Source of the DNA: Escherichia coli
GTDB lineage: Bacteria; Pseudomonadota; Gammaproteobacteria; Enterobacterales; Enterobacteriaceae
DNA: 31,491 nucleotides
Assembly (NCBI RefSeq): GCF_003334255.1
Contig: NZ_QOWU01000059.1
Direction: 5' to 3' (one strand)
Below the pieces are notes generated by a model, which did not search any database, had not been told where the DNA came from, and worked only from the letters and a program-made list of their open reading frames with translations. This document shows positions 24,318-27,986 of this stretch, piece by piece (positions within the stretch are counted from its first letter, which is position 1; every line of letters starts with the position of its first letter). A program made the position numbers and the translations under genes.

Positions 24318-25049
24318 TTAGGGGGCATGAAAGATGACTTTATAACCTTGCTCACCCCAGTGTTGTAAAAGTTCGTTTTGCCTTCTCGTTGGTGCCATGC
24401 CTGTCCAGACAATCAATGTTTGCGTCGGGAACAGTTCCGGGCGCGGCGATTCAATGGGATCAGCAAGAACAGAAATGTGCCATCCTGACAATGATAAACG
24501 CCATGCTTCCAGCCACAATCGTGCTCTCTCTTCAACATTCCACGCCATCAGAATGGCTTCTTTACCGGGCTTACGGCGCATTTCGAAAAGCGAGGTTGCT
24601 GCGTATTCAATTAATGCGCCGTCAAACATACTGCTCATAATGCGGGAGGTGTTGTGATCAAGCACGAGACGCTGGCGAACAGGAAGGTAAACATGATTAA
24701 TCAATTGATCTACTGGGTACTCTCGACCCAGTGAAATAATTCTCGCGCGTAGTTTGGCAGGATTAGCCATGCGAAGAATTGACATCATCTCTTCTTGCAG
24801 GCGGCTCCAGTCATCTTCCGTATCCTGGCTGGTGGTTTCCAGTAATGCTTTAACTTTGCCTACAGGGACGCCATTACTTATCCAACGCTTGATCTCTTCG
24901 ATGCGTTGTATGTCTTCTTCATCAAAGAGTCGGTGTCCGCCTTCACTGCGCTGTGGTTTTAACAAACCGTAGCGGCGTTGCCAGGCCCGGAGAGTGACAG
25001 GATTAATCCCGCAACGTTCAGCAACATCACCAATGCTGTAATAAGCCAC
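24318..25049 (-). CDS. bluR: MerR-family transcriptional repressor BluR (YcgE), 243 aa
   Basis: N-terminal MerR helix-turn-helix ([54 protein letters not shown]…); lies next to bluF and divergent from ycgZ-ymgA-ariR-ymgC. Confidence 0.88.
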
Positions 25050-25253
25050 AATTCCTCCTTGCGGTCACAAATCTCCGTCGCCTGTACACGACCCAATAAT
25101 ACTTTGTACAATATACGCTAAAATTGTACAAAGTATAAATAAGATTTCAGCTAAATTGGATGAAACATTATTTTTAATGTGGATTAAATTTAAACGTAAC
25201 GTATTCATTTTCACGATGATTTACTGAAATCATGTGAAAGAATGTGCTGAAAA

Positions 25254-26465
25254 TTATTTTTTCTCTGGCCACGCTATGGAAGGGATACCATTCAATTTAG
25301 CTTTAGCAAACAGATCTCCCTGAAACATCTCAATTCCTGCGGATTCAAGCCACATCCACTCTTCTGGTGTTGCCACGCCCATAGCACTGACTTGAATTTC
25401 AAGTGATGTACAGCATTTTATGATCGCCTGAATAATTGCCTGCCGTGGCCCACTTTTATGAACATTGGTAATCAATTCCTGACTGATTTTAATTCTGTCA
25501 GGCTGGAAGCGTGACAGGAGTAACAAACCAGCAAAACCTGCGCCAAAATGATCAATTGCTACACTGATACCAGCAGCCTTTAGCGATTTAATCGCTTCGG
25601 CAAACTCATCAAACCGAGATATGACTTCACTTTCAGTAAATTCAACGATGATTTGTTCAGGCACCAGAGCATTGGCCTTTATTTCATTAAGTAAAAAAGA
25701 GACTGCGTCAGGTTCGTTAACCAGGGTCATAGGTAATAGATTGATTGAAATCATTTTATCACCGAGCTCAAGTGCGTGTGCCATCGTGAATGCAAGCGCC
25801 TTACTTTTGAGATCCGCTGTGTAGATTTCCCCGTCTTTACGCTGCCCAACCGCTATGGCTGATGGGCTATCTTCATTTTTTTGCACAATGGCTTCAAAAG
25901 CGATTATCCGCCGCGATAAGGGATCGACAATAGGATGAAAGGCAAAGTGGTCGTTTATAGTTGGTGAAAGGGCACAGGAATCAAGTTCTTTATCAGATCC
26001 GTCAGCGATAAAAAGCCAGGAGTCTTCGGCAGGGATCTCGAAATAGGTTGATTGTTCGGTTGCAAGGACAAAAGTACGAAAAAATTGTAGCGCTCTGTCA
26101 TCATAAGTTAGCTGAAATTTTGATGTGCCTTTGTCGAATACGGCCTGTAAAACGTCATCTCGCTCGTGCAGGCGCAAATCAAATAATTCCATTCCCGCTT
26201 TGCCAAAACGGCGAGCAGGCGCGTAATCGCACAGCAGCTCAACAATATTATAGTGCCGTGGATCCTGGCATATAGCCCGATATATCATTTTAACCTGTTC
26301 TTCCGGACCTTCCAGAAGCTGGAAAAAATGAGAACCATTAAACAGTAAGATCCCTGTTACGTCAGACTGCATGTTCCTGCGATTTGCTATCGAAACCATT
26401 TCTTCGATTTTTTTGACAGGTTCGTCGTCACGTATATGGCTACGATAAATAAGGGTGGTAAGCAT
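25254..26465 (-). CDS. bluF: Blue-light sensor BluF (YcgF): BLUF domain plus degenerate EAL domain, 403 aa
   Basis: MLTTLIYRSHIRDDEPVKKIEEMVSIANRRNMQSDVTGILLFNGSHFFQLLEGPEEQV… is a BLUF signature, followed by an EAL-like C-terminal half. Start set at the internal ATG (26463-26465) that gives the K-12 length. Confidence 0.88.
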   Translation of the reverse strand: MLTTLIYRSHIRDDEPVKKIEEMVSIANRRNMQSDVTGILLFNGSHFFQLLEGPEEQVKMIYRAICQDPRHYNIVELLCDYAPARRFGKAGMELFDLRLHERDDVLQAVFDKGTSKFQLTYDDRALQFFRTFVLATEQSTYFEIPAEDSWLFIADGSDKELDSCALSPTINDHFAFHPIVDPLSRRIIAFEAIVQKNEDSPSAIAVGQRKDGEIYTADLKSKALAFTMAHALELGDKMISINLLPMTLVNEPDAVSFLLNEIKANALVPEQIIVEFTESEVISRFDEFAEAIKSLKAAGISVAIDHFGAGFAGLLLLSRFQPDRIKISQELITNVHKSGPRQAIIQAIIKCCTSLEIQVSAMGVATPEEWMWLESAGIEMFQGDLFAKAKLNGIPSIAWPEKK

Positions 26466-26778
26466 TAACAATCCAGGGTAATGGGTGAGGCGAGAGTAAG
26501 ACGGTAACAGACATATCTTCTTGTGTCTTTCTTTTAATACCAAAACATAACCGTTTCTTTACATTGATAAAAAATGGAAAAAGTTGAACACTAGTTGGCG
26601 AAAAATCTTGTATAGATTGTCAGTTAAATGATGCAATATTTTTTATCATAACACATTGTTTTATATGTATTAGCACTAATTGAAAAAAATTAATTTATCA
26701 TTCTGTACACATATTTCGTACAAGTTTGCTATTGTTACCTCACTTCACATTGATTAACATTTTTAACAGAGGCGTAGC

Positions 26779-27015
26779 ATGCATCAAAATTCAGTGACTT
26801 CAGATTCTGCGGGAGCAATCACTCGTTACTTTGCAAAAGCTAACTTGCCTACTCAGCAGGAAACTCTCGGGGAAATTGTGACTGAGATTTTGAAAGATGG
26901 ACGTAATCTGAGTCGAAAGTCGCTTTGTGCCAAACTTCTTTGCCGACTGGAACAAGCGACAGGGGAAGAGGAACAGAAACATTATAATGCACTAATTGGG
27001 TTGCTTTTTGAATAA
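26779..27015 (+). CDS. ycgZ: Small protein YcgZ, 78 aa (YmgB/AriR-like)
   Basis: MHQNSVTSDSAGAITRYFAKANLPTQQETLGEIVTEILKDG…; shares the x-YF-x5-L-x2-EE-x2-LG-x2-VT pattern with AriR; first gene of the ycgZ-ymgA-ariR-ymgC cluster. Confidence 0.85.
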   Translation: MHQNSVTSDSAGAITRYFAKANLPTQQETLGEIVTEILKDGRNLSRKSLCAKLLCRLEQATGEEEQKHYNALIGLLFE

Positions 27016-27057
27016 TGCAACAGCCTGATTATTTAACAGGTTAGCTATGAAGTCGTT

Positions 27058-27330
27058 ATGAAGACATCTGATAATGAACGTATAAAATATGAAATTACTG
27101 GCCAGGCGGTGCTCCAGATACTGCGCATGAAGATAAATTTTTCATTGCAGACTCTTATTAAGCAATTACTCGTAATGAAATCGGCTGAGGAAGATGCTTT
27201 CCGACGCGATTTAATTGACAGCATAATTCGTGATTTTAGCAATAGTGATTCAGGAGGGCCAAACCGAAGAACAGCGACAGCTGACAATAAAAGTATGTTC
27301 AATGGTAAGAAAATAAACAGAATACATTAA
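27058..27330 (+). CDS. ymgA: Small protein YmgA, 90 aa
   Basis: MKTSDNERIKYEITGQAVLQILRMKINFSLQTLIKQLLVM…; second gene of the cluster. Confidence 0.85.
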   Translation: MKTSDNERIKYEITGQAVLQILRMKINFSLQTLIKQLLVMKSAEEDAFRRDLIDSIIRDFSNSDSGGPNRRTATADNKSMFNGKKINRIH

Positions 27331-27358
27331 AATTTCATAAGTAAGATGAGAGGTTACC

Positions 27359-27625
27359 ATGCTTGAAGATACTACAATTCATAATGCAATAACTGATAAA
27401 GCGTTAGCAAGTTACTTTCGCAGTTCGGGTAATTTGTTAGAAGAAGAGTCAGCAGTGTTAGGGCAGGCTGTCACCAATTTAATGCTTTCAGGCGATAATG
27501 TTAATAATAAAAATATTATCTTAAGTCTGATACACTCCCTGGAAACAACAAGTGATATTCTCAAAGCTGATGTGATTAGAAAAACACTGGAAATCGTGTT
27601 GCGATACACAGCTGATGATATGTAA
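27359..27625 (+). CDS. ariR: Biofilm/acid-resistance regulator AriR (YmgB), 88 aa
   Basis: [45 protein letters not shown]…; third gene of the cluster. Confidence 0.85.
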
Positions 27626-27737
27626 CTTCTAATTATTAAGTATAAGTTTATAGAAAACTCATTCATCTTATTTTTGTCTGTCGCTTTAGACTATACACAG
27701 CATAATTTTATTGGGTTAATATTTCTACGAGGCTGAC

Positions 27738-27986
27738 ATGAATAATTCAATCCCAGAGAGATTTATTTTTCAATGTGCTTTGTTTAAAAATCTCGAGAGG
27801 GAGGTGTTCATGACGCATGGGTATGTTGATAGTCATATTATTGATCAGGCTTTACGCTTGCGTTTAAAAGATGAAACCAGTGTGATTCTTTCTGATCTCT
27901 ATCTGCAAATATTGCAGTACATTGAAATGCATAAGACTACACTAACGGATATCATTATTAATGACAGGGAATCCGTGCTCTCTTAG
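27738..27986 (+). CDS. ymgC: Small protein YmgC, 82 aa
   Basis: MNNSIPERFIFQCALFKNLEREVFMTHGYVDSHIIDQALRLRLKDE…; fourth gene of the cluster. Confidence 0.8.
   Translation: MNNSIPERFIFQCALFKNLEREVFMTHGYVDSHIIDQALRLRLKDETSVILSDLYLQILQYIEMHKTTLTDIIINDRESVLS

Follow-up and report, generated by a model that had tools for sequence, protein, structure and literature searches.

The bluR to ymgC region of the DNA under study, a window of 31,491 nucleotides from the Escherichia coli chromosome, is almost certainly the E. coli BluR/BluF blue-light and low-temperature signaling module together with its target operon. We further suggest, tentatively, that the bluR promoter carries a conserved and previously unreported BluR/MlrA-type dyad (TGTACA-N13/14-TGTACA), a candidate feedback site. 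Open reading frame calls and RefSeq annotation agree on six genes and their coordinates, with bluR-bluF divergent from the other four, just as the preliminary description of this DNA had it:

24318 to 25049, minus strand: bluR (ycgE), MerR-family repressor and MlrA paralogue of 243 aa, with a GTG start
25254 to 26465, minus strand: bluF (ycgF), BLUF-EAL blue-light sensor and anti-repressor of 403 aa
26779 to 27015, plus strand: ycgZ, first gene of the operon, YmgB/AriR-family protein of 78 aa
27058 to 27330, plus strand: ymgA, 90 aa, with a basic, disordered tail at the C-terminus; probably a third, diverged paralogue with the AriR fold
27359 to 27625, plus strand: ariR (ymgB), 88 aa, biofilm and acid-resistance regulator, Rcs connector and SpoT partner
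27738 to 27986, plus strand: ymgC, last gene of the operon, 82 aa, unrelated to YcgZ, YmgA and AriR

The genes, their order and their orientation match the bluR(ycgE)-bluF(ycgF)/ycgZ-ymgA-ariR(ymgB)-ymgC locus of K-12 (b1162-b1167; Tschowri 2009, 2012). The 3.9-kb region shows 100% identity with several complete E. coli genomes annotated with these same six genes, and was found in 5065 of 5426 genomes. Beyond E. coli, the synteny bluR-bluF/ycgZ-(ymgA)-ariR is retained in eight further loci of other genera, in the midst of unrelated flanking genes. None of the results obtained contradicts the identification of the module, and the two sub-threshold snoRNA matches that were all Rfam returned at relaxed thresholds are taken as chance. 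The module is already known, having been characterized since 2009, and this copy is nearly identical to that of K-12, so that its presence is an ordinary finding; its description at the outset as a known signaling system was apt, the literature already covering its genes, its repressor and anti-repressor, its operator and start sites, and its outputs.

BluR displays the Pfam domains MerR_1 (2.4e-18), MlrA_helical (6e-29) and MlrA_C (3e-32). It also matches the NCBIfam equivalog model for MlrA (5e-80), but because the 268 bits of this match lie below the 417-bit cut-off of the model we regard it as a paralogue of MlrA rather than as MlrA itself. The two proteins have in common this three-domain architecture, their length and the recognition of a TGTACA-type core, whereas they differ in that MlrA activates (curli, csgD) and BluR represses, and in the spacing of their half-sites, which is 18 bp for MlrA and 13 bp for BluR at ycgZ. 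Their helix-turn-helix motifs differ at just four residues, and BluR binds weakly at the csgD site (PMC3509220). BluF combines an N-terminal BLUF domain (Pfam, 4.5e-24) with a C-terminal EAL domain (7.7e-49). In K-12 this EAL domain is degenerate, with neither binding nor hydrolysis of c-di-GMP, and BluF acts as an anti-repressor through contact with BluR (PMC3509220); given its 100% identity to the K-12 protein, the BluF of the window would share both properties. BlrP1 of Klebsiella pneumoniae has the same BLUF-EAL architecture, but its catalytic EAL residues are preserved, it acts as a phosphodiesterase regulated by light, and it has no link to a bluR/ycgZ unit, whereas BluF works by protein-protein contact (PMC3509220).

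The comparison with K-12 that had been proposed revealed that five of the six proteins (BluR, BluF, YmgA, AriR and YmgC) are 100% identical, and that YcgZ bears three residue changes, L8S, H24P and H59Q. The proline at position 24 is invariant across the family and is present in the window; it is K-12 that has a histidine at this otherwise invariant position, which is relevant when K-12 serves as the reference. Over 8.3 kb the window and the K-12 locus differ by 16 SNPs, nine of which cluster within 26640-26961, and five fall in the bluF-ycgZ control region (at 26640, 26668, 26683, 26739 and 26746). No difference from K-12 was seen in the BluR operator, in either promoter or in the spacer between bluF and bluR. 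The e14 prophage, which in K-12 resides in icd upstream of the locus, is absent from the window.

The following elements were located between bluF and ycgZ:

26466 to 26778: divergent bluF/ycgZ control region, 313 bp, AT-rich
26673 to 26687, plus strand: candidate MarA site (marbox) GCACTAATTGAAAAA, with its centre lying about 62 bp upstream of the start site of ycgZ
26704 to 26722: BluR operator TGTACAcatatttcGTACA, a TGTAC...GTACA dyad overlapping a GTACA...GTACA direct repeat
26706 to 26743, plus strand: putative placement of the ycgZ sigma-S/sigma-70 promoter, with -35 TACACA at 26706-26711, an 18-bp spacer, TGc extended -10 TATTGT at 26730-26735 and the start near 26743

This control region had been delimited beforehand as AT-rich and 313 bp long, in keeping with its measured GC fraction of 0.304 against 0.481 for the window, and the BluR operator that was expected within it is indeed there and intact. 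The GTACA dyad TGTACACATATTTCGTACA is the only one of its kind in the window and is identical in K-12; across nine genera its proximal GTACA is invariant and its distal half-site mostly conserved. The operator has already been mapped by DNase I footprinting, EMSA and in vivo mutagenesis (PMC3509220; Tschowri 2012). Published start sites lie 36 nt upstream of the ATG of ycgZ, whose promoter has an 18-bp spacer, and 30 nt upstream of that of bluF, at about 26495 (PMC3509220); from these and the sequence we infer the above placement of the ycgZ promoter elements. A generic scan for sigma-70 promoters and terminators returned 11 promoter-like sites, against 10.7 expected from shuffles, and missed the ycgZ promoter. 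Like classical MerR-type promoters (merT, zntA, copA, soxS), that of ycgZ has a dyad operator inside the promoter and a spacer longer than optimal. However, the MerR-type spacer of 19-20 bp that had been anticipated here is not borne out: in classical MerR-type promoters the dyad is centred in a spacer of that length, whereas at ycgZ the operator overlaps both the -35 element and a spacer of 18 bp. Moreover, BluR acts by simple repression and is released through a partner protein, in contrast to the ligand-driven, DNA-distorting activators of the classical MerR type. BluR/BluF resembles CarA/CarH-CarS in that an acidic anti-repressor competes with DNA for a MerR-type DNA-binding domain (PMC3509220).

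The candidate marbox, for which the consensus GCAHWWWWTGYYAAA and a position have been published (PMC6900184), is placed at 26673-26687 on our own reading; at 26683 it carries a C-to-A change relative to K-12, at a consensus pyrimidine position. RcdA has also been reported as binding the bluF-ycgZ spacer (PMC3535384), and the locus has further been linked to MarA (PMC6900184), RcdA (PMC3535384), SrsR (PMC9181523), SpoT (PMC10704370) and OmpF (PMC5491885).

The mechanism that we envisage is carried over from K-12 on the strength of sequence identity, and for DNA binding, anti-repression and the Rcs, SpoT and OmpF outputs it draws on the literature. BluR, the MerR-family paralogue of MlrA, would bind TGTACA-N7-CGTACA, which overlaps the -35 element of the ycgZ promoter as well as its 18-bp spacer, and from there would repress ycgZ-ymgA-ariR-ymgC. 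BluF, when produced at low temperature and excited by blue light, would bind BluR and free it from the DNA, its degenerate EAL domain presumably having no phosphodiesterase activity. The small proteins would act as connectors, with AriR and YmgA addressing the Rcs phosphorelay, to raise colanic acid and lower curli, AriR addressing SpoT and YcgZ addressing ompF. In origin, YcgZ, AriR and most probably YmgA would be ancient tandem paralogues with the three-helix AriR fold, and YmgC would be an unrelated later addition. Finally, the conserved dyad of TGTACA hexamers that lies between -35 and +1 in the bluR promoter may constitute a second BluR/MlrA-type site, which would introduce feedback into the circuit.

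The elements upstream of bluR that bear on this last proposal are:

25083 to 25088: third of the TGTACA hexamers, at about +16 to +21 within the 5' untranslated region of bluR
25099 to 25136: candidate site, a perfect 14-nt inverted repeat ATACTTTGTACAAT-N10-ATTGTACAAAGTAT with TGTACA cores at 25105-25110 and 25125-25130
25103 to 25139, minus strand: bluR sigma-70 promoter by consensus scan, with -35 TTTATA at 25139-25134, an 18-bp spacer, -10 TATATT at 25115-25110 and the start near 25103

Transcription of bluR has been reported to start 54 nt ahead of its start codon (PMC3509220), and TATATT is the functional -10 box of this promoter (bioRxiv 10.1101/2025.10.20.683477). The inverted repeat is identical in K-12, and the pattern of paired TGTACA hexamers was observed twice in the window as against 0.04 expected occurrences. 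In the bluR upstream regions of eight genera the two TGTACA hexamers are the sole invariant blocks (in Atlantibacter the sequence reads TATACA-N13-TGTACA), and in most genera they start 19 bp apart, in E. coli 20 bp, as against 13 bp in the proven ycgZ operator. Among the loci compared, the third hexamer is seen in E. coli only. In the literature searched on the ycgE/bluR promoter and its autoregulation, the Genes Dev 2009 paper aside, no report of this dyad was found. Its candidate roles are those of a BluR auto-operator or of a site for cross-talk from MlrA. RcdA was also considered as a binder and rejected because TTGTACAA does not fit its box, TTGTnnACA (PMC3535384).

Inverted repeats can equally be read at the level of RNA, and the repeat at 25099-25136 could be a hairpin that terminates or stabilizes the bluF transcript rather than a site for a protein. 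It is situated some 120-155 nt beyond the stop codon of bluF, and the minus-strand RNA folds at -16.9 kcal/mol (z=-4.4 against shuffles). Furthermore, bluF and bluR are transcribed independently (PMC3509220), and therefore some signal for the termination of bluF is to be expected in the spacer between them, where the consensus scan gave no other terminator. However, the AT-rich stem has UAUUAUUGGG after it rather than a U-run, and it falls short of the terminator scan. In seven other genera just the two 6-bp TGTACA cores are conserved, separated by a 13-nt gap and embedded in non-complementary flanks, an arrangement that would not make a terminator, and in Enterobacter a GC-rich hairpin followed up by a T-run occurs separately, upstream of the TGTACA pair. 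Within the bluR promoter the repeat lies between the -35 element and +1, centred between -35 and -10, and it has at its core the motif that BluR and MlrA are proven to recognize. A hairpin as the function of the repeat thus appears quite improbable.

A protein-binding dyad could be occupied by MlrA instead of BluR, in which case bluR would not be autoregulated and would belong to the sigma-S/MlrA branch of curli control. The published MlrA box at csgD, TGTACA-N12-TGCACA, measures 18 bp from start to start (PMC3509220), and the spacing of the bluR dyad is nearer to this value than to the 13 bp of the ycgZ operator; the four helix-turn-helix residues that separate the two proteins, and the weakness of BluR at csgD, point the same way (PMC3509220). 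Yet the spacing is still 1-2 bp off the MlrA box, and the fact that the dyad accompanies bluR at every locus examined fits autoregulation at least equally well. In addition, its location between -35 and +1 is that of a repressor, whereas MlrA is an activator. In the 2010 work of Ogasawara, MlrA is said to activate by binding upstream of csgD. On balance, we consider MlrA in place of BluR to be rather unlikely.

If BluR is the protein that binds the dyad, it would act as a repressor of its own production, and bluR too would be derepressed by BluF together with blue light and cold, providing the circuit with negative feedback and fast re-repression. If it is MlrA, the curli activator would set the level of its own paralogue. 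Were the proposal correct, with either binder, the dyad would add a second direct BluR target to the ycgZ promoter (in vivo) and the weak binding at csgD described in the literature consulted, and what has been seen as a linear relay from light to Rcs would become a feedback circuit.

With respect to the small proteins, it can now be stated which are paralogues: on sequence evidence YcgZ and AriR certainly are, YmgA probably is an AriR-fold paralogue as judged from fold and profiles, and YmgC is unrelated by sequence to the other three. The pattern shared by YcgZ and AriR to which the preliminary description had drawn attention is present, and the similarity is real but weak. BLASTP misses it (E=15), and with YmgA the same program gave E=0.046 for the AriR pair and no alignment for the YcgZ pair; as this method is too insensitive for proteins of 80 aa, we replaced it with Smith-Waterman shuffles and profiles. 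The Smith-Waterman score of 61 for YcgZ/AriR, against a shuffle mean of 23.9 (z=8.5), was reached by none of 3000 composition-preserving shuffles, so that the absence of similarity that would have spoken against paralogy does not apply to this pair. YcgZ matches the NCBIfam model YcgZ_fam at 1.3e-36 and Pfam YmgB at 1.2e-5, AriR matches the same two models at 3.2e-6 and 9.7e-26, respectively, and hhalign of the two family alignments gave a probability of 94% (E=1.5e-7). All database homologues of YcgZ had already been assigned to PF10798. Residues 25-88 of AriR are identical to PDB 2OXL (2oxl_A, E=2.2e-34); phmmer searches of PDB sequences with YcgZ and YmgA found no match.

YmgA presents a more diverged case. 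Neither Pfam nor NCBIfam has a family that matches it, and none of ten orthologues matched Pfam, so that its link to YcgZ and AriR is not encoded in current models of either library; a word-indexed homologue search yielded matches confined to Escherichia. Against the YcgZ and AriR families taken singly hhalign gave probabilities of 0.8-3.8% (P 0.011-0.068), as against 32% (P=4.8e-4) for the merged profile, which also matched all ten YmgA orthologues (P 1.6e-5 to 6e-3). The three pairwise and profile alignments of YmgA all share a single register on the xxG(Q/E)AV motif. Its predicted structure adopts the three-helix AriR fold, and the top match of this model among 48,164 PDB chains is AriR, with the qualification that AlphaFold worked from a 10-sequence alignment and may have had 2OXL in its training. 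Compared with the YmgB/AriR family (PF10798; 2OXL), YmgA lacks the N-terminal YF segment and has a disordered basic tail of about 25 residues.

These likenesses could in principle be a by-product of short, helical sequences of similar composition, the four genes having been recruited separately into the operon. The BLASTP values, the lack of a family for YmgA with its low single-family probabilities, and the absence of nucleotide-level repeats among the small genes would all accord with this. However, the shuffles preserve composition and never met the YcgZ/AriR score, the cross-matches come from two independently curated profile libraries along with the hhalign result, and for YmgA the common register, the merged profile and the structural match of its model likewise argue for descent. 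Separate recruitment of all four is hence highly improbable, and stays valid for YmgC only. The paralogy first described as visible across the cluster thus holds for YcgZ/AriR, reaches significance for YmgA only with profiles, and does not extend to YmgC. The tandem duplication proposed along with it is upheld as to homology but not as a recent or E. coli-specific event: the direct repeats seen at the nucleotide level between the small genes are no more than 15-17 nt long, with 80-87% identity, which is chance level, and the gene order is common across genera; the duplication is therefore ancient.

YmgC lies outside PF10798 and matches no Pfam or NCBIfam family. Its Smith-Waterman comparisons gave p values of 0.09-0.76, and hhalign against the YcgZ, AriR and YmgA profiles gave E values of 0.11-0.32. 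A search of 1.84 billion proteins with YmgC gave just 31 representatives at E<=1e-3, and one Citrobacter locus contains an orthologue.

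[quoted passage not shown] The preliminary description had recognized here a bluR-bluF pair and, divergent from it, a cluster of four small genes; the identities and coordinates of all six agree exactly with the RefSeq annotation of a 100%-matching genome and with that of K-12 MG1655:

24318-25049, minus strand, bluR (243 aa)
25254-26465, minus strand, bluF (403 aa)
26779-27015, plus strand, ycgZ (78 aa)
27058-27330, plus strand, ymgA (90 aa)
27359-27625, plus strand, ariR (88 aa)
27738-27986, plus strand, ymgC (82 aa)

Pfam searches recovered MerR_1, MlrA_helical and MlrA_C domains in BluR, and BLUF and EAL domains in BluF. 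BluR, BluF, YmgA, AriR and YmgC are 100% identical to their K-12 counterparts, and YcgZ differs from its own by three residues (L8S, H24P and H59Q). The region is the already known K-12 module and not a variant of it. The original finding is correct, and our analysis refines it with respect to the probable paralogy of YmgA, the exclusion of YmgC, an 18-bp promoter spacer and a candidate dyad in the bluR promoter; only the last of these would be new biology.

The bluF-ycgZ spacer (26466-26778) has the 313-bp length and AT-rich character ascribed to it, with a GC content of 30.4% against 48.1% window-wide. It was expected to harbor the BluR operator, and an intact dyad is indeed present, at a site for which footprinting, EMSA and in vivo mutagenesis have already been published (Tschowri et al., PMC3509220). 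That study describes the operator as a TGTAC...GTACA palindrome that shares sequence with a direct repeat (GTACA...GTACA); the site spans the -35 element and the promoter spacer. This spacer measures 18 bp (PMC3509220), and not the 19-20 bp that had been anticipated. The placements of the promoter elements and of the MarA box on the window sequence are our own predictions:

26673-26687, predicted MarA box (Kettles et al. 2019, PMC6900184)
26704-26722, BluR operator TGTACACATATTTCGTACA, the same as in K-12 and without a second dyad of its kind in the 31.5 kb
26706-26711, plus strand, putative ycgZ -35 element TACACA
26730-26735, plus strand, putative ycgZ TGc-extended -10 element TATTGT, 18 bp from the -35
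~26743, plus strand, putative ycgZ transcription start

Binding of RcdA to the bluF-ycgZ spacer (PMC3535384) and of SrsR to the region upstream of bluR (PMC9181523) has also been reported.

Similarity between YcgZ and AriR had been taken as a sign of tandem duplication, with pairwise alignment as the proposed check. BLASTP returned an e-value of 15 for YcgZ and AriR, no alignment for YcgZ and YmgA, and an e-value of 0.046 for YmgA and AriR; its failure on such pairs is attributable to the limited sensitivity attainable with very short proteins. Smith-Waterman comparison (BLOSUM62, gap costs 11/1), by contrast, gave YcgZ and AriR a score of 61 against 23.9 +/- 4.4 in shuffles (z=8.5), with none of 3000 shuffles scoring as high, and the segments originally singled out fall inside this alignment. 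Profile searches gave concordant results: AriR is matched by the NCBIfam YcgZ model (3.2e-6), YcgZ is matched by the Pfam YmgB/AriR model (1.2e-5), and hhalign of a 20-sequence YcgZ alignment with a 14-sequence AriR alignment yielded a probability of 94% and an e-value of 1.5e-7 over 56 columns. Together these matches establish homology between YcgZ and AriR. Pfam already captures this relationship, and the YmgB/AriR family PF10798 is assigned to every YcgZ homologue in a large protein collection.

YmgA has no Pfam or NCBIfam family match, and its close homologues are limited to Escherichia. Against single-family YcgZ and AriR profiles it gave no significant hhalign score (e-values 0.011-0.068, probabilities 0.8-3.8%), yet all these alignments keep one register, on a common xxG(Q/E)AVxxxL motif. 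We assembled diverged orthologues by taking the gene that separates ycgZ from ariR at syntenic positions in Citrobacter rodentium, another Citrobacter, C. amalonaticus, Atlantibacter, Scandinavium, Intestinirhabdus and Phytobacter; these share 29-51% identity with E. coli YmgA. The resulting broad profile aligned with a merged YcgZ and AriR profile over 48 columns (hhalign P=4.8e-4), and a merged-family HMM matched all 10 YmgA orthologues with single-test P values of 1.6e-5 to 6e-3. The AlphaFold2 prediction derived from the broad alignment is three-helical, and its pLDDT exceeds 90 at residues 11-60; YmgA lacks the N-terminal YF segment and bears a disordered basic tail. YmgA is thus very probably a third, more diverged paralogue of YcgZ and AriR.

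Neither Smith-Waterman shuffles nor hhalign found any relationship of YmgC to YcgZ, YmgA or AriR, and its relatives are scarce, a search of 1.84 billion proteins having yielded 31 representatives at E<=1e-3; as judged by these comparisons, YmgC is unrelated to the other three. No nucleotide-level repeat is left among the small-protein genes, and the order ycgZ-ymgA-ariR is common to several genera; therefore, the duplications are older than the split between these Enterobacteriaceae. As an old event, tandem duplication stands for YcgZ and AriR and very probably for YmgA, with YmgC outside it.

The bluF-bluR spacer contains a perfect 14-nt inverted repeat, ATACTTTGTACAAT-N10-ATTGTACAAAGTAT, whose cores, with a further copy nearby, are as follows:

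25099-25136, inverted repeat, corresponding by calculation to K-12 positions 1,214,110-1,214,147
25105-25110 and 25125-25130, TGTACA cores of the repeat
25083-25088, third TGTACA

TGTACA pairs spaced 5-20 nt apart are found twice here, whereas the expected number per window is 0.04. Positioned from the published bluR start (~25103) and the promoter TTTATA-18-TATATT, of which TATATT has been named the functional -10 box (bioRxiv 10.1101/2025.10.20.683477), the repeat falls between -35 and +1, with its center near -14.5. When the sequences upstream of bluR in eight genera were aligned (mean identity 59%), the two hexamers were seen to supply 13 of the 15 invariant columns and to be the only invariant blocks. 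They are separated by N14 in E. coli and by N13 in the other genera aligned. Atlantibacter has TATACA-N13-TGTACA. The TGTACA core is the motif recognized by BluR at ycgZ and by its paralogue MlrA at csgD, where the site is TGTACA-N12-TGCACA (PMC3509220). In E. coli the repeat could possibly act as an RNA hairpin or bluF terminator, and its predicted fold (-16.9 kcal/mol, z=-4.4) is consistent with this; yet such a role leaves unexplained why the hexamer cores alone are conserved in other genera. We regard the dyad as a candidate BluR auto-operator or site of MlrA cross-talk. Neither BluR autoregulation nor this dyad was found described in the literature searched, which did not include Tschowri 2009.

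Our analysis shows directly the identity of the genes, their domain content, the intactness of the operator and the match to K-12 sequence; the remaining steps come from the literature, whose mechanism should apply to this strain because the proteins concerned are identical to those of K-12. BluR would repress ycgZ-ymgABC; BluF, made at low temperature and activated by blue light, would bind BluR and release it from DNA, and AriR and YmgA would then activate the Rcs phosphorelay. AriR has also been reported to bind SpoT and raise ppGpp (PMC10704370), and YcgZ to lower ompF transcription and to be degraded by Lon (PMC5491885).

Only 16 SNPs separate 8.3 kb of the window (23082-31400) from K-12, and 9 of them sit in 322 bp (26640-26961) that take in the control region of ycgZ and the greater part of its coding sequence, a density ~30 times the local background. 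Three of the nine produce the YcgZ substitutions. Such clustering points to either a short recombined patch or selection acting locally. Codon 24 of YcgZ (26848-26850) encodes Pro in the window, in most E. coli variants examined and in all other genera, and His in K-12; Pro24 is invariant in the 20-sequence family alignment, and with His24 the laboratory reference may carry an unusual allele. One SNP, C-to-A at 26683, alters the 11th position of the MarA box GCAHWWWWTGYYAAA, where the consensus has a pyrimidine, and might make ycgZ less responsive to MarA- and salicylate-dependent activation in this strain. At ~23072-23082 the alignment register with K-12 shifts, pointing to a small insertion or deletion between iraM and ymgK. 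Whereas the e14 cryptic prophage interrupts icd in K-12, icd is intact in the window and directly followed by iraM, with no e14 (21318-22994).

The bluR-bluF/ycgZ-(ymgA)-ariR unit is kept across the loci compared from other genera (L004-L015) with varying flanking genes, among them gdhA, carB, GHL10, PTS, DUF1264 and MCP genes, which suggests that the module moves as a single piece. In Enterobacter (L004/L005) the locus is without ymgA, and among the loci compared ymgC is confined to Escherichia and a single locus from Citrobacter (L008).

At the left edge of the window, 1-9700 carries the end of a lambdoid prophage that holds its tail genes (gpJ, a Lom-family protein, a 1008-aa tail fibre, tail fibre assembly genes and a SAM methyltransferase); the prophage adjoins potB at the place where one would expect potC. 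ATCC 25922-type genomes match the first 10 kb with 100% identity, and most of this stretch occurs in only ~323 of 5426 genomes. At the other end, 30591-31436 is the start of ycgH, which the annotations of both K-12 and the matching genome give as a frameshifted autotransporter pseudogene.
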